Virus record (IMG/VR): IMGVR_UViG_3300034069_002177 | Span: 1-64,000 of that record | Length of the DNA stretch: 64,000 nt | Direction: 5' to 3' (one strand) | Source of the DNA: a virus | Taxonomy: Duplodnaviria; Caudoviricetes | In this document: positions 2,364 through 64,000 of the stretch, one piece after another | Numbering within the stretch: the first letter of the stretch is position 1 | Layout of the letters: each line of letters starts with the position of its first letter | Made by a program: the position numbers and the translations under genes | Notes under the pieces: generated by a model | Databases searched by the model: none | What the model saw: the letters and a program-made list of their open reading frames with translations, nothing else | Told to the model about the DNA's origin: nothing

Positions 2364-3665
2364 ATGCATCCCAATACTCAGCCCGAGACTATCGTTGATA
2401 AAAACGGCGTGACCACTACCCGTCACAAGAAATCTACAGCTACTACCGCCACGAGGAAGCTACCCACTCCAACCAAAATCAAGGCTGTTACCGGAGCCGA
2501 GCGCATTGCTGGTTCCAGCACTCTAGAGAAACTGAATTTTGACATCAGTACATTGCTGGTCCAAGATATTGTGCCTGGGGCTAAAACAGTGACTGTGGAC
2601 AACGACGATGACCAACTGGTGCTTACTGCAATCGACGGTGCCGAAGTTCCTGATGGCATTTCTGGTTTTCTTGCCAGCCGATTACTGAATCAGGCTGGTA
2701 TTTCTGAGGGAACATACAAGCTAAGTTCCGCAGTGAACGAAGACAAAACCAAGTCTCTGTTCAATGCTGAGGTGTTGCACTCCAATGGTCTCTCGAAGGA
2801 AAGCCTTACTGAGAATGGTTTGACTGAGATGCAGGCTATCGCCGCCATCGGTTTTGCACGAACCGAAACGGATGCTTACGCATTGGGCGAGCTAGCGGGA
2901 TACACGACGAACCCTCTCGTTCTTGTGGGCGTTGTGATGAACTCGAATACTTCAGAAGGCACATTGGCTGACCTTGCCGACGACCCGAGTTCGTTAGTAC
3001 GCTCGGCAGTCGCTGATAAGACAAAAGATCCCGAGGTTGTTTCCAAGTTGACCAAAGATACGCATTCTGTACTGGTAGTCATGAACGCTGTTCGTAATTC
3101 ACTCGCTTCATCTGACGACCTTGACGCTGCCTATCGCAACTCGTCTTCGGAGATGGTGCGCAATCAAGCTGTTGGCAATGATAACGCCTTGCAGTCTACG
3201 CTCTCCGATGCCATTAATAACGACTGGGACTCACGTGTCATTGATACCGCCAGTTCTAAACTGACATCTGGTGAAGCCAGCAAGTGGACGAACACTATTC
3301 CTAAGGCATTCATCAAAGACAACGAGTTGCAATCAGCAGCCCGTGCGGCGTCTGATTACGTCAAGACTGTTTCTGGTTCCGATTACACAAAGGAACACCC
3401 GGAAGCTATTTTGACCGACGAGCAGGCTCGGGCAATTGCGTGGCGAGTCGCTAGCCGCAATACCAATGGCGATAACGAAGCATTTACTGCACTTGATGCT
3501 GGTGATGACTTCTCACTACAGAAGCTCGTAGTTGAAGCCGCGAACATCAAGAATCAGCGTTTCAGTGACCGTTCGTATGGTTTGAAGTGGGACGTAGATG
3601 CCTACATGCCCGCAATTATTGGTTGGGCACGAACGAAGCAGGGTCGCGCACCAAGGAACGCCTAG
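2364..3665 (+). CDS. DKNG-tag protein with HEAT/LRV-like helical repeats
   Basis: N-terminus PETIVDKNGVTTTRHKK; internal TLADLADDPSSLVRSAVA-type repeats; GGAGA RBS. Confidence 0.75.
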   Translation: MHPNTQPETIVDKNGVTTTRHKKSTATTATRKLPTPTKIKAVTGAERIAGSSTLEKLNFDISTLLVQDIVPGAKTVTVDNDDDQLVLTAIDGAEVPDGISGFLASRLLNQAGISEGTYKLSSAVNEDKTKSLFNAEVLHSNGLSKESLTENGLTEMQAIAAIGFARTETDAYALGELAGYTTNPLVLVGVVMNSNTSEGTLADLADDPSSLVRSAVADKTKDPEVVSKLTKDTHSVLVVMNAVRNSLASSDDLDAAYRNSSSEMVRNQAVGNDNALQSTLSDAINNDWDSRVIDTASSKLTSGEASKWTNTIPKAFIKDNELQSAARAASDYVKTVSGSDYTKEHPEAILTDEQARAIAWRVASRNTNGDNEAFTALDAGDDFSLQKLVVEAANIKNQRFSDRSYGLKWDVDAYMPAIIGWARTKQGRAPRNA

Positions 3666-4063
3666 AAAGGTCGGATGAGTCTTTTGACTCCTTTGATGTC
3701 GCACTCATCGTTGTCAACAAAGTAACGTGAAGGAATCTCCATCCCAATCGCCTTCTTGGCGGCATCTCGCGTTCCTGCGTTAGCCAATGCCGAGTCGAAG
3801 AAGAATAAGGCGACATCGATGCCACTGACGAGCATCTCTGAGTTCCTGATGTTTCCGCCCCTTTTGCCAAGAGTCCAATCGGCAGGATGAGCTTCTACTT
3901 TGAAGCCATACTCTTCGGCTACTTCTTGTGCCAAGGAGTCTGCACCACGAGCAGCGCCGTGCACTACCGTAACGATACGTGCATCTCCCGCAGCATCTTC
4001 AAGTGCACGACGCACGCATTCGTAGTTGGTGTACTCTCGCGAGCCAGAAACCATGATTCGCAT
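3662..4063 (-). CDS. SLOG-family (DUF2493/YspA-like) protein
   Basis: MRIMVSGSREY...VVHGAARGADSLA...AHPADW...IRNSEM signature. Confidence 0.8.
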   Translation of the reverse strand: MRIMVSGSREYTNYECVRRALEDAAGDARIVTVVHGAARGADSLAQEVAEEYGFKVEAHPADWTLGKRGGNIRNSEMLVSGIDVALFFFDSALANAGTRDAAKKAIGMEIPSRYFVDNDECDIKGVKRLIRPF

Positions 4064-4776
4064 TAGAGTCCAACCATCTCGTCTCTGATGGACTCGCGAA
4101 TGATTTCGGCTACCTGCTCATAGGAAACGGGTTCACTATCAGGAATGGTTTGCTCCAAGGCGTAAGTCCGAGACTTGGCTGCTTCTTCAAGTACCGAAGC
4201 AGTAATGAATGCGTTTGTCGCGACAATTGCGTAGTTGGCGAGTGCGGGCTGATCCTCAAAGAATCGAGCAGCACTCGGAACAGCTATTTCGTTTTCACCC
4301 GACAAGAGCTTGATGATGCCATCGTTGATTATTCCAGCAACAAGATGATTGATGACTTCGAGGGGAATTTCTAAAACATTCGATGCATTCTCGGCATGTG
4401 CTTGTACGGCGAACTTAATCCTTGTCCAGAACTCCAAAGGAAAATCCATCGGCTGTCGATTGCCTTGTTCGTATTCAAGCCAGCTACTCAGCGTTCCATC
4501 TTCGCTGATTTCGTAACGAGCGCCTTGCTGAGCAAGTTCATCCAAAGCGTCATTGTCACCTCGTTCATAGGCATCGGCTATTTTGTCACCGATTTCATTC
4601 AAAGAGATCCAATCGATAACGGAAAGTGTCAACTGGATTGACGATGCGGTAAACAGTTCCGCGTCAGCAGCTTGAGCAATGAGTTTTAGCTCCGGTACTT
4701 GATAGCTGTGAAAAAGGTCAGCCGCAGCGATAGCTAGACCAGGGGTGATTTCGGATGCATTGAACTGGTCGCTCAT
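4063..4776 (-). CDS. Hypothetical alpha-helical acidic protein
   Basis: ORF track gives 4063..4854; ATG 4776 (MSDQF) is the more plausible start. Coupled to the SLOG gene. Confidence 0.65.
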   Translation of the reverse strand: MSDQFNASEITPGLAIAAADLFHSYQVPELKLIAQAADAELFTASSIQLTLSVIDWISLNEIGDKIADAYERGDNDALDELAQQGARYEISEDGTLSSWLEYEQGNRQPMDFPLEFWTRIKFAVQAHAENASNVLEIPLEVINHLVAGIINDGIIKLLSGENEIAVPSAARFFEDQPALANYAIVATNAFITASVLEEAAKSRTYALEQTIPDSEPVSYEQVAEIIRESIRDEMVGL

Positions 4777-4908
4777 ACGCGTGATTGTTTCGCTGGATGG
4801 TTCATGACGGAAGCATACCTCGTGGTGTCGGTTGATGCAACATCTTCGTTTCATCTTGGCGTGTCAGGTGTTATTTGTACAATAGGTAAATACCCTTGAA
4901 GGAGCATC

Positions 4909-5409
4909 ATGTCAAACGCTGGAAAGATTCGTGTACCCGTAGTCGATAAGAACGGTAAGGAGACTCACGTATGGAAGTCTCCTGATGAACTCAAAGGCGA
5001 GGCTAGCCGCTCTAGTGTCATTCCTACTGCACCTGCGCCAAGTGCCGATACTCGCCAACCGAACCCCTCTTCTGATGATTTCGTCACTTCGGTAGACACA
5101 GTATCCGTTGAAAGTCCTTTCGGACCTGATGCCAATTGGTCTTACAAGGTGGACCTTGGAGATATTCTCACTGCTGACACCTCTCTTGCCGAGAAGGCTG
5201 AACTGCTTTCTGATGCCATTTCGGATTCGGATTGGTATGCAGATACACTCGCTGCGGCTGAGGGTGGAAGCTCTGAGCTTGTTGATGCTGTTGAAGATCT
5301 GCGCGAGGTTAGTGAAGATGGTTCTGCTGCGGAATTCGATGTCGCATGGAACAACATCTACAACATCGCTGACAACGACAAGGTGTACCTCGGTCAAGAA
5401 GTCGACTAG
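4909..5409 (+). CDS. DKNG-tag acidic protein
   Basis: N-terminus KIRVPVVDKNGKETHVWKSP; AAGGAG RBS. Confidence 0.75.
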   Translation: MSNAGKIRVPVVDKNGKETHVWKSPDELKGEASRSSVIPTAPAPSADTRQPNPSSDDFVTSVDTVSVESPFGPDANWSYKVDLGDILTADTSLAEKAELLSDAISDSDWYADTLAAAEGGSSELVDAVEDLREVSEDGSAAEFDVAWNNIYNIADNDKVYLGQEVD

Positions 5410-5422
5410 ATATGATGTGTTC

Positions 5423-5467
5423 GGAAACAGCCCCTGATTGGTTTGCCCCCAGTTAGGGGCTGTTTCC
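5423..5467 (+). terminator. Hairpin terminator
   Basis: GGAAACAGCCCCT ... AGGGGCTGTTTCC followed by a T-rich tract. Confidence 0.7.
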
Positions 5468-8388: not shown

Positions 8389-10065
8389 ATGAACACACAT
8401 CCTGAGGTACGACCTGACAAGAACGGCAATTTAGTGACCCGTCACGTTGCCCTATTCAAAGGCTTGAAAGACCGAGCAAAGTCTGCGCCAGTACCCAAGG
8501 CATTTGATGGAGATCTTGTAACCTGTTCTTTCTGTGCTACAACGCACCAGAGGGGCACTGTGCACCGCTGTAAGGTTGATTCACTCGTAGCACTGCCCAA
8601 TAGCACCAAAACCGTCCTGCGAGCTTGTAGAGCCGCAGGAGGCACACCGGCTATCGTAGGCGGGAGCGTGCGCGATGCCATTCTCAATCGCATGAATGGT
8701 GCCGGTACGTATGCTCCGAAGGATATTGACATCGAAGTGTTCGGCATCAAAGACCCGCAGCTTCTCAAACACGAACTCTCCAAGCGTGGGATTGTTAATG
8801 AACAGGGCGTTTCTTTCGGCGTTCTCAGTATGCAGATGGACGGTATCGATTACGACATCGCGCTCCCACGGAGGGACTCCAAAGCTGGTCGTGGACACCG
8901 TGGCTTCGATGTTGATTTCACTTCCGATATCGAAGAAGTAGAAGCGTTCGGTCGTCGCGATTACACCATCAATGCTATGGGTTGGGATCCGACCACGCAG
9001 CAACTCATTGACCCTTACGGCGGAACCCAAGATTTGTACGATGGGATGCTTCGTCATACCACCTCTGCATTCTCGGATGACCCGCTACGCGTACTTCGAG
9101 GTGTGCAGTTTGCCGCCCGTTTCGGATTTGACATGGCACCGGAAACAGCAGAAGAGTCTGCACGCATCAAGGGTGAATTCTCGACCATTGCCGCCGAACG
9201 CGTCTGGGGTGAGTTTGACAAGATCCTCACCAAGGGGACTCATATCTCTAAGGCGATCAGGGTGCTACAGGACACTGGCTGGATGGAGCACTTCCCCGAA
9301 CTTGGACGTATGGAAGATGTGCCGCAAGACCCGAAATGGCACCCAGAGGGTAACGTTTTGGAGCATCTTGGACAATCAGCCGACCGTGCAGCGCTGAACA
9401 CGAAATCGTGGAATGTCAACGATCTCAAAGTGGCTCAGGACAAGCGTATTGTCGTATTCTCAGCGCTTGTTCATGACCTTGGGAAATTCGGTGAGGGTAC
9501 TCAGATTCATCATGATGATAATGGCAATGTGGACAAGATTACGTCCTATGGGCATCCCACACTTGCTGATGACGCCATTAGCTCTTTTGGTAAGAGAATC
9601 GGCGCGCCTCGATCTGTGACCGACCCCGCCAAAAAGCTCACTCAGGAACACATGGTTGTTCATGGTGCCCACGGCGAAAAGCCATCGGGTCATGCCGTCC
9701 GAAAGCTTGTTCGTCGTCTAGGTGACGGTAAGGACGGTGCGAGCCTTTACAACCTCGCACAGGTCATTGACGCCGATCAGGGTGGTCGTGGAGAGGCATC
9801 TATTACCAGCAAGGGTGCTGGTTGGGCGTGGATGGAAAAGGCTCGTGAACTCGATAACGTAACCCCTCCCAAGGTTCTTGTACGCGGAAACATGCTCGCT
9901 GATCTCGGCGTACCCAGAAACGAGATGATGGGCGAGATTGTCAAGGCGTCGTTGGTTGCTCAGGACAACGAAGAATTCACTGATTTCGAGGGCGCTCGTG
10001 AGTGGGCAAAGAAGTACGTCGCAGGCTTGTCGCTACCCACTGTTAGAATTGACCCGAGAGCGTAA
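8389..10065 (+). CDS. cca: CCA-adding enzyme / tRNA nucleotidyltransferase with HD domain and N-terminal DKNG tag
   Basis: IVGGSVRD, DIDIEV, RRDYTINAM, DDPLRVLRGVQFAARF, HDLGK; N-terminus RPDKNGNLVTRHV then CSFC..HRC; TATGAT 6 nt before ATG. Confidence 0.85.
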   Translation: MNTHPEVRPDKNGNLVTRHVALFKGLKDRAKSAPVPKAFDGDLVTCSFCATTHQRGTVHRCKVDSLVALPNSTKTVLRACRAAGGTPAIVGGSVRDAILNRMNGAGTYAPKDIDIEVFGIKDPQLLKHELSKRGIVNEQGVSFGVLSMQMDGIDYDIALPRRDSKAGRGHRGFDVDFTSDIEEVEAFGRRDYTINAMGWDPTTQQLIDPYGGTQDLYDGMLRHTTSAFSDDPLRVLRGVQFAARFGFDMAPETAEESARIKGEFSTIAAERVWGEFDKILTKGTHISKAIRVLQDTGWMEHFPELGRMEDVPQDPKWHPEGNVLEHLGQSADRAALNTKSWNVNDLKVAQDKRIVVFSALVHDLGKFGEGTQIHHDDNGNVDKITSYGHPTLADDAISSFGKRIGAPRSVTDPAKKLTQEHMVVHGAHGEKPSGHAVRKLVRRLGDGKDGASLYNLAQVIDADQGGRGEASITSKGAGWAWMEKARELDNVTPPKVLVRGNMLADLGVPRNEMMGEIVKASLVAQDNEEFTDFEGAREWAKKYVAGLSLPTVRIDPRA

Positions 10066-10077: not shown

Positions 10078-10995
10078 ATGGCACTTTTCAAGAAGCAAGG
10101 CGTTGACAAGAACGGTCACCAGTACACCCGATTGGTCCGCCCCGAGGGTGATACAGGAACGGTTCGTCACGGTCGTATTCCTTCTCCGACTATCGTCTCC
10201 GCCGACGAGGTGGATTCATACAGAGACTTCATCGAGACTTCCGAGAGCATCATCAACAACATCCCGAAGTCTGAGCGTATCAACATCACGCCCGAGCAGC
10301 TTGACGCTGTATTCGGAGTCATGAAGGAGTTCGGCACTCAGGATGATGATTCATGGGGTTTTCGCAATCACGTCGCCAAGAAAAGCGATCATGGTTATGA
10401 GTGGAGCGAGCGCGGCTGGGGCTCGCGCTTCAACATGGACACCGACCGCGAGGGCAATATCCGCAACGTCAGTCTTTACAACATCGGTTCCGGTAACCAG
10501 CAGGCGGAATACCCTCGATTCGCAGAAGGTCAAGCCAAACTTCGTTCGGCTCTAGGACTTCCCGAGTACAACGATTCCGAAATGCGCTACATCGCCACTC
10601 GTTACTTCGATTCGCAGATCCTCAGCACCCTTGGCGATATCCCTGGCGATGGTGGTCGCGGTCTTCGCAAGAAGTATGTCAGTGACATCATGGACCATAA
10701 GGAACTCATCCCGGACCTTATCGAAGGTCTCAAAGAGCAGCCTGTCGATGTTGTTGGCAACATGAGTGGTTATGTCGAAACACTGGGCACGCCCGGTAAG
10801 GATTATGAGCCGTTCCTCTCCAAGGTGCGAGAGGGCAAATTCGTTGCTGCACAGAATGAACTTTCGCGATACCGAGAATTCAACGATGACCAAAAGCGAG
10901 CCATCAACAAGAAGATTGATACCTTGAAGAAAGAAGCAGCACGTGAGAAGCGTGCTGCTAAGAAGGCAGCAGAAGCAGCCGCTACCGCGAGCTAG
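10078..10995 (+). CDS. DKNG-tag hypothetical protein
   Basis: N-terminus KKQGVDKNGHQYTRLVRP; AAGGA RBS; basic coiled C-terminus. Confidence 0.75.
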   Translation: MALFKKQGVDKNGHQYTRLVRPEGDTGTVRHGRIPSPTIVSADEVDSYRDFIETSESIINNIPKSERINITPEQLDAVFGVMKEFGTQDDDSWGFRNHVAKKSDHGYEWSERGWGSRFNMDTDREGNIRNVSLYNIGSGNQQAEYPRFAEGQAKLRSALGLPEYNDSEMRYIATRYFDSQILSTLGDIPGDGGRGLRKKYVSDIMDHKELIPDLIEGLKEQPVDVVGNMSGYVETLGTPGKDYEPFLSKVREGKFVAAQNELSRYREFNDDQKRAINKKIDTLKKEAAREKRAAKKAAEAAATAS

Positions 10996-16599: not shown

Positions 16600-17295
16600 T
16601 TAGATGCCTGCTTCTTCACGAAGTCGCTTCAATTCTTCTTCAACTTCGTCAGCGTGGCGCTCAGCGATTGTCACCGATGCCTGATTACGGAGTTTGGCTA
16701 TCTTCGCGGCATTCTGGTTGTCCCTAATTGCTACTTTGGCGTCGTCCAAATCATCCTTAAGGATGTAACCGGACTTGGCACGATACGGGAAACTGACGAA
16801 TGGTGCGTTCTTGTCTGCTGTCCCGTTCTTGGTCTCATTGTAGGTAGGATCTTTGACCTTGACGAGTTCACCATCTTCAATGAGTTCGTCGAGAACTTTG
16901 TTGACTCCGCTAACAGAGATGCGCTCGTTGTAAATAGCGGACTTGCTTTTGCCGCCCGTGTATTTGGTGTCAGTGTTTCTACCTCGCGTAGGATCTTCAC
17001 CGATAAGCGCCACCATGATTTGATCGTGCATGACGATATTCGGCTTCAACGTATACGAAGAAACGGGACCGTCTGTTGTTTCGCCAAAGTTCTTGAATTT
17101 GTGCTGGTTCGCTTTAGCGAAAAGGTCGGAGATGGTGTCACGCATAGCTTCATACCCTGCCACTTCAACCTTGGGTGCCGGAGCAGTCGCTGAGCGACCA
17201 TCTGCGCCGTTGACATCTACGCGCTTGTTACGAGTCGTCGCAACGCCGTTCTTGTCTACGATGCCCTCTGGGCGTGTGTTGGAGCCGAATGACAT
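16600..17295 (-). CDS. DKNG-tag hypothetical protein
   Basis: N-terminus RPEGIVDKNGVATTRNKRV then GRSATAPAPK; GAAAGGAAAG RBS. Confidence 0.75.
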   Translation of the reverse strand: MSFGSNTRPEGIVDKNGVATTRNKRVDVNGADGRSATAPAPKVEVAGYEAMRDTISDLFAKANQHKFKNFGETTDGPVSSYTLKPNIVMHDQIMVALIGEDPTRGRNTDTKYTGGKSKSAIYNERISVSGVNKVLDELIEDGELVKVKDPTYNETKNGTADKNAPFVSFPYRAKSGYILKDDLDDAKVAIRDNQNAAKIAKLRNQASVTIAERHADEVEEELKRLREEAGI

Positions 17296-17423
17296 GGCTT
17301 TCCTTTCGTTACTTCATGGTATCGCACAGTTGCGACAAACAGTTACACACTAGAAGGTTTGGGTGCAGTCAATAAGGCTTGTCGAGTGGTTTTGATGTCG
17401 CTTGTTCCCATTATGATTTCGGT

Positions 17424-17766: not shown

Positions 17767-18357
17767 ATGACAACCATCCCCACCCCGATCATCGACAAGA
17801 ACGGTAAATCCACTACCGTTCACAAAAAGGTCGAAACCGCCTCCACTTCGAGAGTTGGCAGCGCACCCATCTCTGCGCCCGCGACTCACAACATCGATGC
17901 ATTGGCATTGGAGCGAGATCAGGCGGACAACCTTCTTGAAGATGTAGGTGAGAACATTGTGGTCAGCAACCACGGTGCGTTCCCCAATCGTCGCCCAACT
18001 GTCTCATTGACCGATATGAGTGATGGTGACGTAGCACGCGGTAACTGTTGGAGCATCGTCAATGAGTTGATTGAAGTAGCTGGTACCGACTACTTTGGTG
18101 ACTATGTTGACGAATTGAACATGCACACCAAGGATGGTCTGAGTCACACCGGTCTTTTCGTCAAGAAAGGTGACAAAGAATATGTCGTTGACTATACCGC
18201 CCGTCAATTCGGTCAGCACCTTGATTTCCCGGTAGTGGCTCCGGTAGAAGAGTGGAAGTTACTCATCGAAAAGTCCTATGGTCAGCCTTTCGAATACACT
18301 CCGGCATCGGACGAAGACGATGATGAAGATTCATATGAATGGTATGACGAAGACTAG
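17767..18357 (+). CDS. DKNG-tag protein with papain/transglutaminase-like Cys-His-Asp domain
   Basis: PTPIIDKNGKSTTVHKK; ARGNCWSI...SHTGLFV...YVVDYTARQF. Confidence 0.65.
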   Translation: MTTIPTPIIDKNGKSTTVHKKVETASTSRVGSAPISAPATHNIDALALERDQADNLLEDVGENIVVSNHGAFPNRRPTVSLTDMSDGDVARGNCWSIVNELIEVAGTDYFGDYVDELNMHTKDGLSHTGLFVKKGDKEYVVDYTARQFGQHLDFPVVAPVEEWKLLIEKSYGQPFEYTPASDEDDDEDSYEWYDED

Positions 18358-24573: not shown

Positions 24574-26292
24574 ATGGCTTTTGAACCAACAGAGTCTATG
24601 AAGGCTAATGATTGGCTGAATGGAATCTTCAAGGAAGCTTTCGAACGGGGCGCTAGCGATATCTTCATCGACGCAGTGTATGACGCCCAGGGAGAAATCA
24701 TGTCCTTGGAGCCAGAACTCCGAATTGATGGATGGAACATCAAGGAAGCTCCGCTTACTGATATCCGTGCTAGTCAGGTAATCGTCCTTATCAAGAACGA
24801 ATCAGAAATGGGTACCTCGGCGCTTAATGCCCCCGAGGAAGGTCGATTCCCCTTCAAGTATGAAGGTGGAGCAAACAACCCCGAGGACGCAGAATCGCTC
24901 GACGTTCGTGTCACTATCTTCCCCACGGTTACTGGGGAGTTCATCTCGATGCGTATTCCTCCCGTAGGTGCGCTTCCTGAACTCAGTAGTCTCGGTATTT
25001 CTGAGTACAACATGGGTCGCTTGAAGCAGTTGCTCTCTCGACCTCAGGGTCTTATCGAACTTGCAGGACCGATGGGTTCTGGTAAGACGACCACTATGTA
25101 CTCCGTCATGAAGGTTATCGGTGGAGAGCGTAGCTCGGTTGTCACTGTTGAAGACCCGAAGGAGCGTACGCTTGAAGGTGCCCGCCAGATGGTTATTAAC
25201 CCTCGTGGTGGTATGACCTATGCTGCTGTTCTGAAGTCTCTACTCCGCGTTGTCATGGACGCCATGCTTATCGGTGAAATTCGAGACATGGACACCGCCT
25301 CTGCTGCCGTGAAGTTCGCTACTTCCGGCACCAAGGTTCTCTCGTCCATCCACTCGGGTGATCCTGTTTCGGCTATTGCTCGTACTATCGACCTTTCCGG
25401 TGCTGGTGTTATCGCTGCGATGGAAGCACTCAGCGGCATCATGTCACAGCGACTTATTCGTACATTCCACGACTTCTGCAAGGGTAAGGGTTGTGTTGGT
25501 TGTGAGGGTACCGGCTATAAGGGTCGTATGCCTGTTCACGAGGTTCTCATCAACAGTTCCAGCATCACCGACCTTATGCTTCGTGGTGCTCCACGTAATG
25601 AGGTCCACAAGGCTGCACGTGATGAAGGTATGATTTCCTTCCACGAAGATGCTGACCGTTTGCTCGAAGCGGGTCGTACCGATGTCAAACAGATCGAAGA
25701 CTCGATTGGTTTCGATACCCGCGTACGTCCCAAGGTAGTAGACCTTTCTCCCGCAAGTGCGGATCATCGTCGTGAAGAGGAAGAGCAGGCTCGTCGAGTG
25801 CAGCAGGCTGCTATTACCGGTCGTGGTATTGCCGAAGAGCCTGAAGTACAGCGTCGCGTTCCTGCATCTGCTCCGGCACCTGCTTCCGCACCTCAGCCTC
25901 AGGGACAGCAGTCTGCTCCTACTCAGCCTCAGCGTCAGGGTGTTCAGCAGCCCCAGCAGGCTCCTGGTCAGCAGCGTCCCCAGGTCGCTCAGCGTCCGGT
26001 ACAGCAGCCTACACAGAATGGTCAGCCCCAACAGCGACCAGTTGGTCAGCCTCAGACGACTCAGCAGCGTGCCGCTCAGCAAGGTGCTGGTGCACCTCCG
26101 CAGGGACACCTTCGTCCCGGTCAGCCTACACAGCCTGGTCGTCCTCAGCAGCGCCCCGCACAACCGCAGGGTCAACAGTCTCCAGTCAGTTCTCAGAAAG
26201 CGCCGCAAAGCGCTCCTGGTCAGGCTAAAATCAACCCACAACAGCCAGTGAAACCAGCCGACCCGCTGAACTGGCTTGAAGAAACCAAGTAA
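24574..26292 (+). CDS. pilB: Type IV pilus assembly ATPase, PilB/GspE-like, with Q/P-rich C-terminal tail
   Basis: PEEGRF, RVTIFPTVTGE.ISMRI, GPMGSGKTTT, TVEDP, IGEIRD, CVGCEGTGYKGR.PVHEVL. Confidence 0.85.
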   Translation: MAFEPTESMKANDWLNGIFKEAFERGASDIFIDAVYDAQGEIMSLEPELRIDGWNIKEAPLTDIRASQVIVLIKNESEMGTSALNAPEEGRFPFKYEGGANNPEDAESLDVRVTIFPTVTGEFISMRIPPVGALPELSSLGISEYNMGRLKQLLSRPQGLIELAGPMGSGKTTTMYSVMKVIGGERSSVVTVEDPKERTLEGARQMVINPRGGMTYAAVLKSLLRVVMDAMLIGEIRDMDTASAAVKFATSGTKVLSSIHSGDPVSAIARTIDLSGAGVIAAMEALSGIMSQRLIRTFHDFCKGKGCVGCEGTGYKGRMPVHEVLINSSSITDLMLRGAPRNEVHKAARDEGMISFHEDADRLLEAGRTDVKQIEDSIGFDTRVRPKVVDLSPASADHRREEEEQARRVQQAAITGRGIAEEPEVQRRVPASAPAPASAPQPQGQQSAPTQPQRQGVQQPQQAPGQQRPQVAQRPVQQPTQNGQPQQRPVGQPQTTQQRAAQQGAGAPPQGHLRPGQPTQPGRPQQRPAQPQGQQSPVSSQKAPQSAPGQAKINPQQPVKPADPLNWLEETK

Positions 26293-26306: not shown

Positions 26307-27980
26307 ATGTCAGACGTAAATTGGGGCACGGGACCAGAAAAGACTCCTAACCCGCAGACTCCCCCTCAGGGACAGCCTATTCAGGGACGACCCGCGCCTA
26401 TTCCTACGCAGGGTGAACAGCCTCTTCGCGGTTTCCCCACTGCTGCTCCCCAGGGTCAGCGTCCGGTACAGCCTCAGCAGGCTCCTGGTCAGCGCCCCGT
26501 ACAGCCAGGTGCTCAGCGTCCGGTACAGCCACAGGTTCAGCCTGGCGCTGCCGTTCGTCCGCCCGCTCAGCAGGTAGGACAGCAGGCTCAGCGTCCCGCA
26601 CAGCAGCCTGTACAGCAGCCTGTACAGCAGCCTGTACAGCAGCCTGTACAGCCTCAGCAGCGACCAGTCCAGCCTGGTTCTGCTCCGGCGCAGCAGGCTC
26701 AACAGGGTCAGTTCGCAACACCTCCAGCTAATCAGCAAGGTGCTGTCTCCATCTCCGGTGCCGCAATCATCGACAATACTCCCGAGGATGTCGAACCCGC
26801 CGAGATGATTCAGTCCAAGCCTGCCGCCCCTGAGAAGCCAGCTTGGTACAAGAAGATCGAAGCTCAGATTATGCTCTGGGCTGAGACCGGTGTTTCCGAC
26901 ATCCAGATGGTTTCCGACAACTATGTGTGGATCGTTGACGACGACAACCACCAGCCAACCTCTCTGTGGTTGACTCGTGAGGATATTCTTCTTCTCGCTG
27001 ACTACTGGGTGCCTGAGAACAAGGCTCTCAATATCACTGGTGGAGCCAAGCACCTTGCCGAAGGGCATGAGGGTACACTTGAAACCGTGCAGACCCTCGG
27101 ACGTTCGTTCGCGTCTGACTCCACGCAGTCATGGCGTTCACGTATCATCTTCCGTCGTCAGGAAAATGGTCTCGGTGTCACGATGCGACTCATTCCGCCG
27201 ACCGTTCCTACGTTGGCTAAGTACCCTCAGCCTCAGCAGATCATGGATCTGTTGAAGGAGAACAACGGTCTCGTCATCGTTTCCGGTCCTACCGGTTCCG
27301 GTAAGACGACGCTTCTCGCCGCGCTTCTCAACGAGTACAACGAGAACAACCACCGTCACATGTACACCATCGAAGACCCGATTGAATTCGTGCACCTTCC
27401 CAAGAAGTCACTTGTCACTCAGCGTGAAGTCGGTCGTGACGTTGATGACTGGGCTGGTGGCATCATGGCTGCCGTTCGTTCAAAGGCTCAGGTAATCATG
27501 ATTGGTGAGCTTCGTGAGCTTGACGCTATCGTCGCTGCTCTTGACGCAGCCAACAAGGGTCACCTTGTGTTTGCAACGTCTCACGCATCTTCGGCTGCTC
27601 AGTGTATCGAAGGTATCGTTGCTCAGTTCCCACCCGGACAGCAGAACCTTGTGCAGAACCGTATTGCTGAGGTCATCAAGTGTGTTATGGTCCAGCGTTT
27701 GGTTCCCGCAACCGATGGAAAGCTCATCGCAGTGCGTGAAATCATGCTTGACCACACCACGACGACTCCTAACATCCGTGCAGGAGACTTCAGCAAGCTC
27801 ACAAACGCGCTAAAAGAGGAAGACGGGATGATTTCTTTCGAGCAATCTCTCTACTACCTTTACGAGGCAGGCAAGATTACTGAAGAAACCGCTCTGAAGT
27901 TTGCTAACATCAAGAACGATCTCGTCTTCAAGATTGACCGTCTCAAAGCGCGTAAGCGTGAAGCCGAATCCCGTCGCTAA
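26307..27980 (+). CDS. pilT: Type IV pilus retraction ATPase, PilT-like, with Q/P-rich N-terminal tail
   Basis: GLVIVSGPTGSGKTT, TIEDPIEFVH, QREVGRD, IMIGELRE, GHLVFAT.HA, GMISFEQSL..L...G.I. Confidence 0.9.
   Translation: MSDVNWGTGPEKTPNPQTPPQGQPIQGRPAPIPTQGEQPLRGFPTAAPQGQRPVQPQQAPGQRPVQPGAQRPVQPQVQPGAAVRPPAQQVGQQAQRPAQQPVQQPVQQPVQQPVQPQQRPVQPGSAPAQQAQQGQFATPPANQQGAVSISGAAIIDNTPEDVEPAEMIQSKPAAPEKPAWYKKIEAQIMLWAETGVSDIQMVSDNYVWIVDDDNHQPTSLWLTREDILLLADYWVPENKALNITGGAKHLAEGHEGTLETVQTLGRSFASDSTQSWRSRIIFRRQENGLGVTMRLIPPTVPTLAKYPQPQQIMDLLKENNGLVIVSGPTGSGKTTLLAALLNEYNENNHRHMYTIEDPIEFVHLPKKSLVTQREVGRDVDDWAGGIMAAVRSKAQVIMIGELRELDAIVAALDAANKGHLVFATSHASSAAQCIEGIVAQFPPGQQNLVQNRIAEVIKCVMVQRLVPATDGKLIAVREIMLDHTTTTPNIRAGDFSKLTNALKEEDGMISFEQSLYYLYEAGKITEETALKFANIKNDLVFKIDRLKARKREAESRR
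26601..26648 (+). repeat. Coding tandem repeat (CAGCAGCCTGTA)x4 = (QQPV)x4
   Basis: Four perfect 12-bp units in the PilT N-terminal tail. Confidence 0.9.
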
Positions 27981-36983: not shown

Positions 36984-38216
36984 TTAGCCTTTGGACTGTA
37001 ACCAGTTCAACACAATGCCCGTCGTCTTCGTGATGGCGGGCATTTCTGTGGAGTAGGCGTGAGTGAGTTGAAGCAGGTTCGGGTGGGTCAGGTCGAGGTT
37101 GGTAAGTTTCTTCGACTCGCGGATGCGGACAACGAGGTATCCGGCATCGAGAAACAGTTGCGTATTTAGGGTGTCCCTGGCGGCGTTCTTAGGGATTTTG
37201 TGGAAGCGTTGACCGTCATACTCGATAATGATTGGTCGGTCGTTGTAGGTACCAATGATGTCTACTTGGATGGGTTTGCTAGCACCGGGCACGGTTACTT
37301 TGTGGAGGTGATCGGTGTTGATGGTCTGGAAGTGTTTAGCGAACTCATCACGGAAGACTTCTTCGGCTTTAGAGGTGCCGGGTGAGGGGTTGCATTTGGG
37401 GCAGCCTGACGGATTCGTTTTGCTACTTCTGGCGTTAAGCGAAATTTTCCATTCGTGTGAGTTCTTGCAGATCCACCAATACTTGACGTGGGTGCCGAAC
37501 AAAACCTCTAATGGAGAGAGTTCGTTCTTGGGAGACCATTCGGGCACGAGATGCGGAAGTCTGGTTGCGATGTCGTTGAAACCAATAAGAAGTACGCGGT
37601 TGGAACAGGTAGGACACCGGTTGCCACCGATGGTTAGCGCATATACCATAGTCGTCCATTCATGCCCTAATTCGCATTCCCAAATAAACTTCTTGTTGCT
37701 ACCCCTAACAACTTCAGTTACCTTTGTGGTGTTCTTTGCTGACCAGAATTTAGCCACATCGGGGTCTGTTGTTGCTAGATCGTTGTAGCCAACGTAAGCA
37801 GACAAACCTCGGCAAACTCCGCATCCAGTTCCTTGCAACGCTCGGCTAGCAATGCAAGCGAAGTAGTCATGACCAACCTTGCAGTCCCACCACACCTTGA
37901 CCAATGAGCCAGGCTTTACTTGGGAGGGCAGAAGCTCATTTTTAGCCGACCAGTCTTTGGCAACGTCGGGGTAAAGAGTCTCTAAATCAGTTTCTCCAGG
38001 AATAACTCGATGACCGGAACAATAAGGGCAGCCGTTACCGAGGTGAATGCGATTAGCAATTTTGGCAGCCCATCGGTGACCTCGACCGCACTCCCAATTG
38101 ACAGTCCCTTTTGCTCCAATTCTAATTTCCAGCAAGGGCACTTCGTTATCTAGACGATACTGATCGACCAAATGGGCATGCTGAGTATTGATTCGACAGT
38201 AGTCAATTAGAAGCAC
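36984..38216 (-). CDS. Zinc-ribbon repeat protein with C-terminal Vsr/DUF559-like endonuclease (homing-endonuclease-like)
   Basis: Four W.C..GH.W...GCP.C-type repeats; SKAE, VDI, IIEYDG..FH, RD, GYLVVRIRE; antisense insertion within the pilus cluster. Confidence 0.75.
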   Translation of the reverse strand: MLLIDYCRINTQHAHLVDQYRLDNEVPLLEIRIGAKGTVNWECGRGHRWAAKIANRIHLGNGCPYCSGHRVIPGETDLETLYPDVAKDWSAKNELLPSQVKPGSLVKVWWDCKVGHDYFACIASRALQGTGCGVCRGLSAYVGYNDLATTDPDVAKFWSAKNTTKVTEVVRGSNKKFIWECELGHEWTTMVYALTIGGNRCPTCSNRVLLIGFNDIATRLPHLVPEWSPKNELSPLEVLFGTHVKYWWICKNSHEWKISLNARSSKTNPSGCPKCNPSPGTSKAEEVFRDEFAKHFQTINTDHLHKVTVPGASKPIQVDIIGTYNDRPIIIEYDGQRFHKIPKNAARDTLNTQLFLDAGYLVVRIRESKKLTNLDLTHPNLLQLTHAYSTEMPAITKTTGIVLNWLQSKG

Positions 38217-49835: not shown

Positions 49836-50651
49836 GTGGGGACACGTAAAGACGAAATCAAGCAGAAGGCGCAAGCAACTCGTGATGCGCAGAAGAAAAA
49901 AGAGAAGCGCTCTCGATTAGCCTTCCAAGGCGGTATTGCCGGTGTGATCCTCGCGGCTGTTGTCGTTGTCGTCTTAGTCGTTCTGGGGTCTAGTAGTGCA
50001 CAGGCGGGTACTCCTGGAAATATGTTTAGCGGCGGTGTCCAGTTCAAGAATTCAAGTCTGACGCCAGTGTCAAGTCCAGCTTCCGATAAGTTCGCTATCA
50101 AGACTCCACCACTGCCTAAGGACAAGGTGGACGTGAGTATTTATATCGACTACCAGTGCCCGTTCTGTAACGATTTCGAGAAGGCATATGGAGACAATTT
50201 GCAGTCTCTGGCAGCATCTGGGAAAATTGACCTCGCATATCACCCCATTGCTATTCTTGATCGTTCTTCATCTGGAACCAAGTATTCGACTCGTGCAGCG
50301 GGAGCCAGTGCATGCGTAGCTGAGTCTGCTCCTTCGCAGTGGCTTGCATTCAACAAGCTGATGTTCGCCAATCAGCCTGCCGAAGGTGGTACTGGTCTTG
50401 AGAACGATAGGATCATCAGTATTACTAAGGAAGCAAAAGTAGACAATGCTGACACCATCAGCAAGTGCATTACAGACAAGAAGTACGACGGTTGGGCAAC
50501 CAAGGTGACCGCCGCTGCGAGCAAGAACCTGCCGCACACCAATGCAGGTCTTGCTGCTACGCCGTCTATTGTTGTCGATGGCAAGCTTTACGCTCAGGCT
50601 GACGGAGACTTCAGCGCTTACCTGAACAAGCTCATTGCCGCGAAGAGCTAA
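49836..50651 (+). CDS. dsbA: DsbA-family thiol-disulfide oxidoreductase, membrane-anchored
   Basis: IYIDYQCPFC, YHPIAILD, YSTRAAGASACV, ATPSIVVDG; N-terminal TM; GGAGG RBS before GTG 49836. Confidence 0.88.
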   Translation: MGTRKDEIKQKAQATRDAQKKKEKRSRLAFQGGIAGVILAAVVVVVLVVLGSSSAQAGTPGNMFSGGVQFKNSSLTPVSSPASDKFAIKTPPLPKDKVDVSIYIDYQCPFCNDFEKAYGDNLQSLAASGKIDLAYHPIAILDRSSSGTKYSTRAAGASACVAESAPSQWLAFNKLMFANQPAEGGTGLENDRIISITKEAKVDNADTISKCITDKKYDGWATKVTAAASKNLPHTNAGLAATPSIVVDGKLYAQADGDFSAYLNKLIAAKS

Positions 50652-51301
50652 CCCGCAATACGCTTAGCGTTGTCAATAGTAGAATCTTCCTGTTCAACTC
50701 CACCTTGGTTGATGAGCAGGAAGATTTCTGCTTCTTGCTCAATGGTTTCGACACTCGCCTCCATTGTAGGAAGAACGGTTGTGTGGCGGAAGCTACGCTG
50801 AAAACCTTCACTGAGGTCGCTGTACTTGACCATTTCTTCTTCGGATGAACTTTGTGATTCGTCGAACCACTCATTGGGTACCTCCAAGCGGTCTTCCATG
50901 AAGTCAAGTACAGCTTCGATACGCTGTTTGCCGTCTACGACAGCACCATAGTGGTCACTGCCGAACGGTCGTTTGTTCAGAATTACCGAGCCGGTGGGAA
51001 TGCCTAGCAAAAGTGAACGAATGAGACCCTGCTTGTGTGCGGTATCCCAGACGGATCCGCGCTGATAAGGAGCATCAAAGTCGTATTGATCACGCGCAGA
51101 GAGCCAATGTCCTACCGTATAGGAGGCGGAATCCATGCGGAGCTTTTCCAAAGGCTTGCGTTCGATCTTGGAAGCCTTCGGAGGCGCACCGACAGCAGCA
51201 GACCTATCCGCAGTGGAACCGGAGTTCTTATCAGGGTTCACTTTGCGAGAGGTGACAATGCCGTTTTTATCAACGATTGGCTTATTAACGAGGTTGCTCA
51301 T
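50648..51301 (-). CDS. DUF262 (ParB-like/GmrS-like) protein with DKNG tag
   Basis: KPIVDKNGIVTSRKV; YQRGSVW, LI.SLL.GIP.G, VVDGKQR, F..INQGG. Confidence 0.8.
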   Translation of the reverse strand: MSNLVNKPIVDKNGIVTSRKVNPDKNSGSTADRSAAVGAPPKASKIERKPLEKLRMDSASYTVGHWLSARDQYDFDAPYQRGSVWDTAHKQGLIRSLLLGIPTGSVILNKRPFGSDHYGAVVDGKQRIEAVLDFMEDRLEVPNEWFDESQSSSEEEMVKYSDLSEGFQRSFRHTTVLPTMEASVETIEQEAEIFLLINQGGVEQEDSTIDNAKRIAG

Positions 51302-54347: not shown

Positions 54348-54349
54348 GC

Positions 54350-60869: not shown

Positions 60870-60934
60870 CCTTTCTCGCACTGTCGTCTCCACACGCTAC
60901 AATCGTAGTAGAACGTAAGCGTCAGGAGAAAAGC

Positions 60935-61750
60935 ATGCAAGGAAGAATCCAGCACACCATCACGGATAAGAACGGTCATCAGAAGATCGTTTGGGTCACT
61001 CCCGACAAGAAGCTACCTTCATCTGCTGAGGGTCGCAACCGTGTCGTCGGCGCAGTGCCAACCATCTCCAAGAAGCCTCTCATTACTTCCGGCGATATCG
61101 AGAACTGGGCGGCACGCAATAATCTTCCATTCGGGGAAGATGAAGATTTCGTAGACCTTGTGAATGCCACCGTCATTGCCAATGACGACTATACGGATGG
61201 TGGGTTACAGAACGCCTACGACGAGGTATTTCGCAGCAACTTCGGTGGATACTCGGTTGATAGTCTCCGTGCCGCGCTGGGAGTCAGTGCGGAACCCACA
61301 GCCCCAGTTGTCCCTTCAAGCTCCGATCCTCGCGTGCAAGCTGGAGAAGTTCTCGATGAGGTAGAGCACGATGGTGTTGTCTATCACCGTGTGCGTGATG
61401 GAGTATACCCGACCGATATCTACTCGATGCGTTTCCAGTTCGACCGCAAGCTCAGTGTCGAGGAAGCTCGTCATGCTCGTGATCTCATCGCTTATGCATG
61501 GACTTCGAAAGTACGCGGAGAGCCCTTCGGCACTGAACTGCAAGATAGTCCGTTCTCCTTCGTTGCTTATGGTGATGTCACCAAGACGCGCCGAGATGAT
61601 TCCGGGCAGGCTCTCGCAGAATGGGAAGAAACCCTTGCTGAGTATCTTGCCGAAGGAACAAAGCAGAAGAACGAATCGCTTCGTATTCCCCCTGTCACTC
61701 CCGCTCTCAAAGTCGAGATTTACTACGACAACGTAGAAGGCGACATTTGA
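60935..61750 (+). CDS. DKNG-tag hypothetical protein
   Basis: QHTITDKNGHQKIVWVTP; AGGAG RBS. Confidence 0.75.
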   Translation: MQGRIQHTITDKNGHQKIVWVTPDKKLPSSAEGRNRVVGAVPTISKKPLITSGDIENWAARNNLPFGEDEDFVDLVNATVIANDDYTDGGLQNAYDEVFRSNFGGYSVDSLRAALGVSAEPTAPVVPSSSDPRVQAGEVLDEVEHDGVVYHRVRDGVYPTDIYSMRFQFDRKLSVEEARHARDLIAYAWTSKVRGEPFGTELQDSPFSFVAYGDVTKTRRDDSGQALAEWEETLAEYLAEGTKQKNESLRIPPVTPALKVEIYYDNVEGDI

Positions 61751-62364: not shown

Positions 62365-62458
62365 AAATAAACTTGACATCTGATTAAAGTCTGCACTAAG
62401 GTAAGTGTTGTACCAAGAACACGTCAGAATTCATCAGAACCGGAAGGAACCACCTCCC

Positions 62459-63160: not shown

Positions 63161-63184
63161 TAGGTGAGTGGTTGGTTCTGAGTC

Positions 63185-63215
63185 AACACCCCGTACTGTA
63201 ATGGTGCGGGGTGTT
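63185..63215 (+). terminator. Hairpin after the DUF2637 gene
   Basis: AACACCCCG / CGGGGTGTT. Confidence 0.6.
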
Positions 63216-63269
63216 GGTATTTAAGCAAGCATATCCATGACTGTCGCTACCGGCTGGTAGAATCATGCT

Positions 63270-64000
63270 ATGACTTCAAACAACACCACTCGCGTTCCAG
63301 TCGTTGACAAGAACGGTAAGCAGACGACGGTTCACAAGAACTTAAACAAGGGTTACACTTCGCAGTTCCGTGTTGCCGCAGTAGCTCAGCCCAACGCCAA
63401 CCCGCCTTATCAGCGTGCTGTCCGTACCGCCATTGGCGAGATTTACAAGGACCGCAACGCCACGGTGAAGAAGCGTAATGTTGATTCCGATTGGAAAGAC
63501 GTACAGGCACTGCTTCGTGAAGGCACTCCGTACTTCGGCAAGCTATCTGACGCCATTTACGAAAAGGTCGGCGGCTCCTGGGGTAATGACCCTGCTAAGC
63601 GCCGTGAGGTGGCAGAGAAGATTGTCGATCTCGTTGGTCGTGAAGATGGGATATACAGTGACTTTGCAGTCGAGAACAACGCTGAGTTCGCTGCGGTTGA
63701 TGACAAGACCGATGCTGTTATCGATGGTGCCGTCAGCAAGGTCATCAACGAGCCCCGCACTAATGAGCGCAATAACCCCTTCTACACCTCGCAGGTTCTC
63801 AATCGTGAGACTCATGACTTGAAGGCAGACGGTGACCCTAAGACTTTTGGGGCGTACTACGAATTCGAGTACATGGGCGCAAGCGAATACGAGTGGGGCG
63901 CGATTCCTAAGTCGTTGAAGAACCTCCACTCAGCCGATGAGATTCAGATTGCTGAACACGAAGTCGAGTACAACGGCGTCAAGCGCACCGCGTACTTCAT
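63270..64000 (+). CDS. DKNG-tag protein, 3'-truncated by the window end (absent from the ORF track)
   Basis: Manual translation MTSNNTTRVPVVDKNGKQTTVHKNL... stays open to 64000; TAGAAT 6 nt before ATG. Confidence 0.8.
   Translation, partial: MTSNNTTRVPVVDKNGKQTTVHKNLNKGYTSQFRVAAVAQPNANPPYQRAVRTAIGEIYKDRNATVKKRNVDSDWKDVQALLREGTPYFGKLSDAIYEKVGGSWGNDPAKRREVAEKIVDLVGREDGIYSDFAVENNAEFAAVDDKTDAVIDGAVSKVINEPRTNERNNPFYTSQVLNRETHDLKADGDPKTFGAYYEFEYMGASEYEWGAIPKSLKNLHSADEIQIAEHEVEYNGVKRTAYF

Follow-up and report, generated by a model that had tools for sequence, protein, structure and literature searches.

A portable N-terminal DKNG tag on unrelated proteins of very large plasmid-like elements is most likely an address label

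A tag of about 40 residues, with the motif DKNG in its hairpin, stands at the N terminus of many unrelated proteins encoded by a very large, uncultured, plasmid-like element. This portable module is restricted to a single family of uncultured elements, 150 to 800 kb in size, which encode a replisome of their own as well as conjugation-type genes and whose hosts are probably Actinomycetota. Most likely, the tag serves as an address label that a single common partner recognizes; we tentatively favor, at somewhat less than an even chance, delivery of the tagged proteins by the element's transfer machine.

The analyzed record, listed as viral by IMG/VR, comprises 202,737 bp of a 654-kb source contig, ∼450 kb of which lies outside it; the window is its first 64,000 nucleotides. 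When all open segments of the record, in six frames, were scanned with a profile of the tag, 19 carriers scored 23.8 to 36.1 bits, while the next best segment scored 3.1 bits; all 19 matches are N-terminal. Ten of the carriers lie in the window. They are the open reading frames (ORFs) in which the original prediction had seen a shared N-terminal tag, and all ten translate as quoted there. These genes and their PafBC-type promoters are as follows.

2321-2342, + strand: PafBC-type promoter TGTCGC-N10-TAGGAT, 22 nt upstream of tagged gene 1
2364-3665, + strand: tagged gene 1, 433 aa; tag at about residues 1 to 45 (2364-2498), 31.0 bits; body without a Pfam match
4862-4883, + strand: PafBC-type promoter TGTCAG-N10-TACAAT, upstream of tagged gene 2
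4909-5409, + strand: tagged gene 2, 166 aa, with a very acidic body; 33.9 bits
8389-10065, + strand: tagged gene 3, 558 aa; tag variant RPDKNGNLVTRHV, the weakest tag at 23.8 bits
10028-10049, + strand: PafBC-type promoter TGTCGC-N10-TAGAAT, upstream of tagged gene 4
10078-10995, + strand: tagged gene 4, 305 aa; 29.3 bits
16600-17295, - strand: tagged gene 5, 231 aa; 30.2 bits
17316-17337, - strand: PafBC-type promoter TGTCGC-N10-TACCAT, upstream of tagged gene 5
17767-18357, + strand: tagged gene 6, 196 aa; 36.1 bits; weak papain-fold Tox-PLDMTX match (E 5.5e-5, below the Pfam cutoff)
50648-51301, - strand: tagged gene 7, 217 aa; tag 25.6 bits; body consisting of a GmrSD_N/DUF262 domain alone (E 2.5e-15)
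60882-60903, + strand: PafBC-type promoter TGTCGT-N10-TACAAT, upstream of tagged gene 8
60935-61750, + strand: tagged gene 8, 271 aa; 30.8 bits
61750-62364, + strand: tagged gene 9, 204 aa; D-V-N-G variant, 28.5 bits
63242-63263, + strand: PafBC-type promoter TGTCGC-N10-TAGAAT, upstream of tagged gene 10
63270-64000, + strand: tagged gene 10, 339 aa in full (to 64286 of the record); 31.0 bits

For tagged gene 9, the ATG at 61750 is a more likely start than 61747. Because this start overlaps the stop of tagged gene 8, the two genes are probably cotranscribed. In tagged gene 3, the tag is followed by a Cys/His knuckle and then by a CCA-adding/poly(A) polymerase head with an HD domain.

The position of the tag is nearly fixed. 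The D of D-K/V-N-G is residue 10 to 15 in all ten window ORFs, whose starts are supported by ribosome-binding sites, and residue 10 to 13 in 137 of 148 database carriers, in which the opening M-S-N-L is likewise conserved. Among the best 150 database matches, 148 have the tag within residues 1 to 45. The motif DKNG itself occurs 15 times in the called proteome of the record, compared to an expected 0.7. After the opening, with the consensus M-S-N-L-x-P-T-P, comes a cationic beta-hairpin (p-I-V-D-K-N-G-K-x-T-T-V-H-K, with a second K at the end in the longer consensus), then a polar stretch of about ten residues, a short helix (R-[VL]-x-x-[VI]-x-x-P, or R-x-x-x-V-x-x-P in its simplest form), and a low-complexity linker that leads into the cargo. 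D, N, and G are invariant, and I, T, T, and V are nearly so. AlphaFold2 models of 60 tags place the hairpin at residues 5 to 10 and 16 to 21 (pLDDT, 85 to 93) and the short helix at residues 29 to 34. The net charge is about +3.7, with four conserved K/H-K-K positions; being polar and cationic, the tag lacks the hydrophobic core after a charged N-region that marks Sec, Tat, lipoprotein, or prepilin signals. One rare protein has three copies of the hairpin, two of them internal.

Several claims of the original prediction can be judged from these data. Its R-x(3-6)-P element is real, with the R conserved in at least 70% of tags, ∼20 residues past the D, and the N-terminal rather than internal placement that it described holds both in the record and in the database carriers. 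It also argued for conservation at the protein level, and we agree because identical residues across tags are encoded by identical codons in only 47% of cases; at the nucleotide level, the tags are no more than 55% identical. The downstream bodies are unrelated, as it had proposed, since after residue 45 the 19 proteins show no mutual blastp similarity at an E value of <0.01. Among the domains it named, CCA/PolyA_pol with HD and DUF262 (GmrSD_N) were recovered, and the papain-like domain comes down to the subthreshold Tox-PLDMTX match of tagged gene 6.

The cargo is a large set of soluble, acidic, mostly uncharacterized proteins, several of which have known anti-restriction or polyvalent-protein domains. 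The median cargo protein is 230 aa long, with one body per tag, and ∼90% of cargoes have no Pfam domain. None of 326 cargoes has a membrane-like segment in the sequence after residue 45, compared to 56 of the 203 genes of the record, and tagged bodies carry a charge of −6.6 per 100 aa versus −1.1 in untagged proteins (p = 2e-5). Known domains include ArdC-N with MPTase-PolyVal, ArdA, SprT, LPD29, Arr/ART-PolyVal, GmrSD_N, and the CCA enzyme; all of these except the last are of kinds that mobile elements use against host defenses. The CCA family also connects the DKNG leader with three others, GGQF, HPR..GRF, and CQSKA, which head members of this cargo family in other actinobacterial elements. 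In the tree of the CCA cargo, these leader flavors group by lineage, with 31 changes versus 60 when the labels are shuffled.

Upstream sequences suggest that the tagged genes form a regulon behind PafBC-type promoters. The 22-nt PafBC consensus tGTCgg(N10)tA(N3)T (PMC8635444), without a −35 element, lies directly upstream of 11 of 19 tagged but 7 of 187 untagged genes in the record (p = 3e-9). The same bias is seen in relatives, where 50 of 167 tagged and 12 of 438 untagged genes have it (p = 3e-20). No WYL gene was found in the record. In mycobacteria, PafBC is activated by single-stranded DNA (ssDNA) (PMC11804915). Promoter, ribosome-binding site, and the first 40 codons travel together ahead of many different bodies.

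Beyond the record, 765 protein clusters at 50% identity match the tag at E ≤ 1e-3. Metagenome loci totaling 537 kb contain 172 further tagged ORFs, at least 27 of them on one 358-kb contig, and in one relative up to 10 of ∼26 neighboring genes are tagged. The sampled cargo bodies fall into 150 unrelated clusters, so that in related elements the tag heads at least 150 other protein families. Carriers sit on metagenome contigs of 150 to 800 kb. Tags are present even in a relative with just 39% identity in the coupling protein. The tag had no match in PLSDB plasmids or in 50,697 INPHARED phage genomes and no confirmed match among GTDB genomes, and its strict pattern was absent from other IMG/VR contigs. 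It is also novel with respect to the Pfam, NCBIfam, and PDB libraries searched, none of which gave a match.

The record has conjugation-type genes. It encodes a VirB4-like ATPase (AAA_10 match, E 1.6e-12, above the cutoff), a pilus locus, and a 1030-aa FtsK_SpoIIIE-domain protein with five N-terminal membrane segments, next to polytopic membrane proteins. The model of this coupling-type protein resembles the FtsK motor and TcpA, the coupling protein of pCW3, with TM-scores of up to 0.74 by target for TcpA; EccC and EssC are among its fold and sequence matches, but the FtsK motor and TcpA rank above EccC. There is also a weak Replic_Relax match. When the tag was co-folded with residues 255 to 1030 of the coupling protein, its cytoplasmic part, the score was 0.00, a value by which the tool signals no answer. 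The record has its own replisome genes (DnaE, DnaX, DnaB, ligase, and topoisomerases) and phage-like auxiliary genes (NAMPT, PRPP synthase, RNR, ThyA, and RtcB). HK97 capsid, Terminase_6N, and TerL_ATPase (PF05065, PF03237, and PF03354) had no match in the 203 kb of the record, itself part of the 654-kb contig, and the PHROGs matches listed (10 + 62 large proteins) include only nucleotide metabolism and replication families and no structural ones. The original prediction had seen a modular label that sorts effectors into virions or an export machine, by analogy with T4 internal proteins. The label stands, at the N terminus of at least 150 unrelated bodies; the virion half, with its T4 analogy, is unsupported because capsid and terminase were not found in these 203 kb, while VirB4-like, TcpA/FtsK-like, pilus, and replisome genes are present. 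Its export machine half is possible, given the VirB4-like ATPase and the membrane-anchored TcpA/FtsK-like protein.

If the tag is a label for DNA transfer, its common reader would be the transfer apparatus, in which a TcpA/FtsK-like coupling protein acts with the VirB4-like ATPase. The ssDNA made at transfer would induce the tagged proteins, which would pass into the recipient with or ahead of the DNA and disarm its defenses, and the GGQF, HPR..GRF, and CQSKA leaders would be lineage-specific versions of the same label. There is precedent for protein transfer in an F-type conjugation system, through which recipients receive 16 or more proteins encoded by the plasmid (PMC8406263, PMC11288057). 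Several observations speak against transfer. The candidate relaxase (162383-163636) is untagged; up to 10 tagged genes among ∼26 neighbors would be a great deal of cargo for one conjugation channel; and other machines, virion genes included, may lie in the ∼450 kb beyond the record. Protein transfer might also be unnecessary, because a PafBC promoter could drive expression in the recipient right after DNA entry. To our knowledge, the signals described for type IV secretion lie at the C terminus or internally, never at the N terminus, which again counts against this reading.

The PafBC link fits another scenario, which we consider unlikely, in which the tag is a timer: a PafBC burst at DNA entry or damage would be followed by removal through the Pup-proteasome or a Clp-type unfoldase, with the lysine-rich exposed hairpin and floppy linker as the handle, so that potentially harmful anti-host proteins act only briefly. 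After DNA damage, mycobacterial PafBC regulon members are indeed cleared through pupylation and the proteasome (PMC6789036, PMC8223512). The four K/H-K-K positions on otherwise acidic bodies agree with such a handle, and the constant spacing from a free N terminus and the disordered linker would suit threading into an unfoldase. However, the invariant and near-invariant residues suggest that the tag is a folded, specific epitope and not a loose degron, the neighborhoods of tagged genes yielded no protease or adaptor gene, and turnover does not explain why the same cargo has different leader flavors across element lineages within one phylum. We know of no sequence motif for pupylation, another point against a turnover tag. 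Equally improbable, in our view, is a docking tag whose hairpin supplies an extra strand to some shared partner within the same cell, involving neither transfer nor degradation; the partner could be incoming or replicating element DNA, the replisome or clamp, a membrane entry site, or an accessory-protein scaffold. A cationic tag on acidic bodies and the element's own replication proteins fit docking, and the protein with internal hairpins implies that the hairpin can work away from the N terminus. Yet a simple docking peptide would need neither the strict N-terminal position nor the conserved opening, and no candidate hub was identified.

Two further readings have much lower probability. Under one, which we regard as very unlikely, the element would be a huge phage whose heads are loaded, by means of the tag, with proteins for injection. 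The T4 capsid-targeting sequence (CTS) indeed resembles the tag-linker-cargo layout, IMG/VR lists the record as viral, the auxiliary genes are phage-like, and much of the source contig lies beyond the record; against this stand the lack of capsid and terminase matches in the 203 kb and of structural families among the PHROGs matches listed, the conjugation-type genes found in their place, and the lack of the tag in INPHARED phage genomes and of its strict pattern in other IMG/VR contigs. The other, to which we give almost no weight, holds that there is no protein signal and that the shared 5' ends are recombination or cassette exchange sites or an mRNA or translation initiation leader. The joint movement of promoter, ribosome-binding site, and first 40 codons is in its favor; the codon analysis largely refutes it, and the protein-level profile conserved across 765 clusters and the confidently predicted hairpin also oppose it.

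Among the closest known systems are the conjugative type IV substrates (the pED208 F-plasmid conjutome; ArdC, Sog, PsiB, and SSB): both sets are plasmid-encoded anti-defense or establishment proteins with a presumed early role in the recipient, ArdC and ArdA homologs are among the tagged cargo, and a coupling ATPase, VirB4, and a positively charged signal region are common to both. Their signals, however, are loosely defined, unstructured, and C-terminal or internal, and only the charge fits the sharply conserved N-terminal hairpin and helix seen here. In type VII secretion (EccC and the EsxB signal peptide, PDB 4n1a), an FtsK-family ATPase reads a short terminal substrate peptide, but that signal is C-terminal, on helical WXG pairs. 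For a monoderm TcpA/FtsK-type machine, we know of no described substrate signal.

The tag also resembles the T4 CTS and the packaged Dar anti-restriction proteins of P1, in which a short N-terminal label heads unrelated proteins whose action comes in the next host. In contrast to these, the record has no virion genes that we could find, no protease cleavage motif was identified, and the tag, at ∼40 residues, has a predicted folded hairpin; the R-x-x-x-V-x-x-P element could be a candidate prohead protease-type cleavage site. Contractile injection systems (PVC/AlgoCIS) also load many unrelated effector families through N-terminal tags of tens of residues, but their motif is unlike DKNG, and sheath, tube, and baseplate families are absent from the PHROGs matches listed here, which come from a general search. 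Polyvalent proteins share ArdC-N, MPTase-PolyVal, ART-PolyVal, and LPD29 with the tagged cargo, and the same role, delivery with invading DNA, has been proposed for them (Iyer et al. 2017, PMC5512222). There, many domains are joined in one giant polypeptide, whereas here each body is a separate small tagged protein; a term search of that paper gave no description of such a tag.

Taken to its full extent, delivery through a TcpA/VirB4-type channel would make this N-terminal hairpin-helix the first substrate recognition signal of a monoderm (actinobacterial) conjugation machine, with hundreds of small acidic anti-defense families as cargo, ssDNA as the trigger through host PafBC, and leader flavors that coevolve with their readers. 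We consider this complete picture rather doubtful. If true, the tag would make it possible to search for anti-defense effectors, the catalog of which would be very large and nearly all uncharacterized.

All ten ORFs of the window that were proposed to carry the motif translate as quoted. When a profile of the tag was run on every six-frame open segment of the 202,737-bp record, it found 19 carriers at 23.8 to 36.1 bits, compared with 3.1 bits for the best other match. All 19 matches are at N termini, as the original prediction had it, and when starts are assigned from ribosome-binding sites, the D-K-N-G motif has its D at residue 10 to 15 in 18 carriers and at residue 22 in 1. In the called proteome of the record, DKNG occurs 15 times, against 0.7 expected. 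Identical residues of the tag share codons only 47% of the time; thus, the tag is conserved as protein, as had been claimed, and not through recent DNA duplication. The second element, described as R-x(3-6)-P, is narrowed by the alignment to R-x(3-5)-[AV]-P about 20 residues past the hairpin motif, so the tag has two parts. From 60 aligned tags, AlphaFold2 predicts a hairpin (strands 5 to 10 and 16 to 21; pLDDT, 85 to 93) followed by a short helix at residues 29 to 34. The bodies are unrelated, with no blastp similarity among the 19 past residue 45, and the idea of a modular label on dissimilar proteins is borne out. The tag is a strictly N-terminal, cationic label (own charge, about +3.7), predicted to be folded and to sit on a flexible linker.

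A search of 1.84 billion representative proteins yielded 765 clusters matching the tag profile at E ≤ 1e-3. Among the best 150, the match lies within residues 1 to 45 in 148, with the consensus MSNLxPTPIVDKNGKxTTVHKK...R..V..P and the D at residue 10 to 13 in 137 of the 148. One of the two exceptions has one N-terminal and two internal copies; the other, database protein P0004, was rejected as an Algibacter T9SS repeat protein whose 19 "TVTDANG" hairpins are generic beta-turn look-alikes. In JGI metagenome contigs, 108 stretches match a strict DNA pattern for DKNGKxTTVHK, and 172 distinct tagged ORFs lie in the 537 kb that surround 80 of these stretches. A start codon lies 8 to 16 codons ahead of the D in 167 of these, and an upstream stop is at most 91 codons away in all 172. 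Tagged genes can be dense: at least 27 tagged ORFs lie within 74 kb of one 358-kb contig, and along 21 kb of a 422-kb contig, 10 of about 26 genes are tagged. The bodies of 326 pooled carriers fall into 150 unrelated clusters.

By tblastn, the tag matched nothing in PLSDB (plasmids) or INPHARED (phages); megablast of 20 kb of the window against INPHARED was likewise negative, and the strict DNA pattern had no match in other IMG/VR contigs. A tag-profile pattern matched 185 times in GTDB (185,579 species genomes) and 129 times in IMG/VR, and none of these matches was confirmed by tblastn. A looser DNA pattern gave 36 GTDB matches, of which the 18 at ≥14 bits are non-N-terminal hairpins of 14 to 20 bits and were rejected; most represent a single conserved hairpin at the C terminus, MGNVMITDKNGKxTTVDKTW, of open frames of about 125 to 580 aa, mainly from Burkholderiales and cyanobacteria. 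Profile searches of Pfam, NCBIfam, and PDB returned no model or structure of the tag, and we found no description of the family in the searchable literature.

Of the bodies that the original prediction named, the CCA-adding enzyme with HD and the lone GmrSD_N/DUF262 protein were confirmed, and the papain-fold match is weak. The record also encodes a tagged ArdC-N plus MPTase-PolyVal protein and a tagged DUF7007 protein. Pfam matches on the 148 database carriers include GmrSD_N (three), ArdA, ArdC-N, SprT-like, LPD29, MPTase-PolyVal, Arr-type ADP-ribosyltransferase, and LRV repeats; an ART-PolyVal protein is tagged in a distant relative, and only 3 of 62 further cargo families have any Pfam match. 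A membrane-like segment occurs in 0 of 326 cargoes versus 56 of the record's 203 genes. Cargoes are rich in D plus E (18%, versus 13% in the comparison) and poor in cysteine (0.37% versus 0.78%), and tagged bodies have a charge of −6.6 per 100 residues, versus −1.1 for untagged proteins (P = 2e-5). Being soluble and acidic, the cargoes have the properties expected of small cytoplasmic anti-defense proteins.

Most tagged genes are preceded by TGTCG[CGT]-N10-TAnnnT, which is the published 22-nucleotide PafBC consensus of actinobacterial DNA-damage promoters, tGTCgg(N10)tA(N3)T (PMC8635444). In the record, the motif precedes 11 of 19 tagged versus 7 of 187 untagged genes (P = 3e-9), and in metagenome relatives, 50 of 167 tagged versus 12 of 438 untagged ORFs (P = 3e-20). 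Single-stranded DNA arises in both partners during conjugation, and also after DNA damage. Since PafBC is activated by single-stranded DNA (PMC11804915), these promoters imply that the tagged set switches on when such DNA appears. No WYL gene was found in the record, so a host PafBC would be needed, which supports an actinobacterial host. A divergent pair of PafBC-type motifs occupies the intergenic region at 17.3 to 17.4 kb of the window:

17396-17417 (+), PafBC-type motif, probably serving a small ORF and tagged gene 6 (17767-18357, +)
17316-17337 (−), PafBC-type motif, serving tagged gene 5 (16600-17295, −)

The leader itself varies among homologs of the CCA cargo. In the closest, it is of the DKNG type (RPDKNGKLVTRHV); in more remote homologs, some of which come from named Micrococcales, its place is taken by an HPR..TGRF, RQPKGIPVGGQFAP, or MCQSKAxGGKRC leader, or there is none. 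These flavors cluster on the cargo tree (31 changes versus 60 with shuffled labels; 0 of 200 shuffles as low), so the leader is a swappable module whose flavor tracks the element lineage, as is expected if every flavor has its own reader.

This CCA/HD family of actinobacterial mobile elements (window 8389-10065; database proteins P0277 to P0395) also has a conserved C-x-x-C...H-R-C knuckle between leader and catalytic domain; in the window's copy, the publicly called gene begins 93 residues too late, so that tag and knuckle are both missed. A second shared N-terminal leader, C-x-x-C-x2-TT-x-DPSGLC-x2-H, occurs on two unrelated small proteins (record 137747-138350 and 139085-139543) and is related to the MCQSKAxGGKRC leader. 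The cysteine-type leader gene starting at 139121 has a PafBC-type promoter, which makes it one of the seven untagged genes counted above.

IMG/VR types the record as a provirus, 96% complete, and the window covers its first 64 kb. The DnaE and coupling protein of the element are recorded on a 654,127-bp metagenome contig, so the record is a 203-kb piece of something larger. We found no match to an HK97 capsid or terminase family in the 203 kb, and the PHROGs families listed for large unannotated proteins concern only nucleotide metabolism and replication; such genes are probably behind the viral call. The viral classification seems mistaken, or unproven at the least; instead of a phage, this looks to be a giant, conjugative, plasmid-like element that encodes its own replisome. 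Its genes include DnaE, DnaX, NAD-dependent ligase, SbcC, and the helicases SNF2 and UvrD. The auxiliary metabolism in the rest of the record (64 to 203 kb) is phage-like. The NAD-salvage pair (nicotinamide phosphoribosyltransferase and PRPP synthase) suggests that this plasmid-like element counters NAD-depleting defenses.

Transfer-type genes, pilus-type genes, and PHROGs families of the record
Record: VirB4-like AAA_10 ATPase
Record, beside the VirB4-like ATPase: polytopic membrane proteins
Record: Replic_Relax, weak match
Record: 1030-aa protein (the coupling protein), five N-terminal membrane segments and an FtsK/SpoIIIE domain
Window 24574-49719: pilus-type locus, with a run of pilin-like proteins, each with a single N-terminal membrane segment
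Window 24574-26292 and 26307-27980: two T2SSE ATPases
Window 27996-29879: T2SSF platform protein
Window 29968-30666: 7-segment membrane protein, possibly prepilin peptidase
Record 64-203 kb: auxiliary genes for NAMPT, PRPP synthase, class I RNR, ThyA, RtcB, and type II topoisomerase subunits
Record: PHROGs families RNR, NAMPT, PRPP synthase, ThyA, topoisomerase II, RtcB, DnaB, and methyltransferases

Relatives with the same DnaE-DnaB-SNF2-FtsK-Metallophos order are 156 to 805 kb long; the relatives as a whole span 150 to 805 kb, and all have about 51 to 53% GC. Close homologs of DnaE and of the coupling protein (a family of 44 members, 42 of them close at E ≤ 1e-55) are all on metagenome contigs. 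The closest cellular DnaE is from Acidimicrobiia (about 43% identity), the closest cellular CCA enzymes are from Micrococcales (about 45%), and the sequencing run that best holds the element is a plant metagenome. The likely host is a member of the Actinomycetota; a literature search for giant extrachromosomal elements of Acidimicrobiia found nothing relevant.

When the coupling protein was modeled with AlphaFold2 (pLDDT, 82.6), its leading structural matches were the FtsK motor and TcpA, the coupling protein of pCW3 conjugation; the type VII secretion protein EccC followed. With NCBIfam, the neighbors of the type IV secretion genes could not be firmly named. Cofolding the tag with residues 255 to 1030 of the coupling protein gave a score of 0.00, which is no answer and weighs neither way. 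On a related 156-kb contig (locus L018, 7639-8601), a single-domain 320-aa FtsK/SpoIIIE ATPase lies directly upstream of two tagged genes and is possibly an alternative tag reader. Inside the pilus locus, on the opposite strand, is what looks like an inserted defense-type or nuclease gene (window 36984-38216, −), whose 410-aa product has four DUF4379 repeats (treble-clef zinc fingers) and weak CapR and MTES_1575 nuclease matches.

The element thus combines one promoter type, soluble acidic cargo with an anti-defense flavor, and a conjugation-type machine. We infer that one partner reads the tag, and tentatively take the transfer apparatus to be that partner: it would recognize the tag on cargo proteins, which would reach recipients together with the DNA or before it. 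F-type systems offer a likeness, moving at least 16 plasmid proteins into recipients (PMC8406263, PMC11288057). Several points count against transfer: the candidate relaxase has no tag, the cargo list is very long, and a PafBC promoter would permit expression in the recipient without protein transfer. Moreover, known type IV signals lie at the other end of the protein, so an N-terminal tag is at the wrong end.

Other readers are conceivable. The tag might be a built-in turnover handle for a regulon expressed in a burst; this is rather unlikely in our estimate, although the Pup-proteasome does clear members of the PafBC regulon (PMC6789036, PMC8223512). Equally doubtful is a docking peptide for an intracellular hub. 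The original prediction had tagged proteins sorted into virions or an export machine. The export machine may be the destination given the VirB4-like and TcpA-like genes, but loading into virions is unlikely in a 203-kb record with no capsid or terminase match, and we consider a capsid-targeting signal very improbable. That the shared 5′ ends act as a nucleic-acid-level leader is hardly credible, being largely excluded by the codon analysis (47% identical codons).

Phage heads, injection systems, and Gram-negative secretion are known to use short address labels at protein termini; to our knowledge, no such label has been described for conjugation machines in Gram-positive or actinobacterial elements. 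The tag is sharply defined and easily searchable. At least 150 unrelated protein families bear it; about 90% of these lack any known domain, and the small remainder consists of anti-restriction or host-modifying proteins. It is therefore a practical handle for finding new anti-defense proteins, and might also be tried as a portable label to relocate proteins or time their action. The link to PafBC promoters that sense single-stranded DNA gives a concrete model for how early genes are controlled when actinobacterial elements conjugate, and the tag offers a way to ask which proteins giant uncultured plasmid-like elements send ahead of their DNA or switch on together with it.
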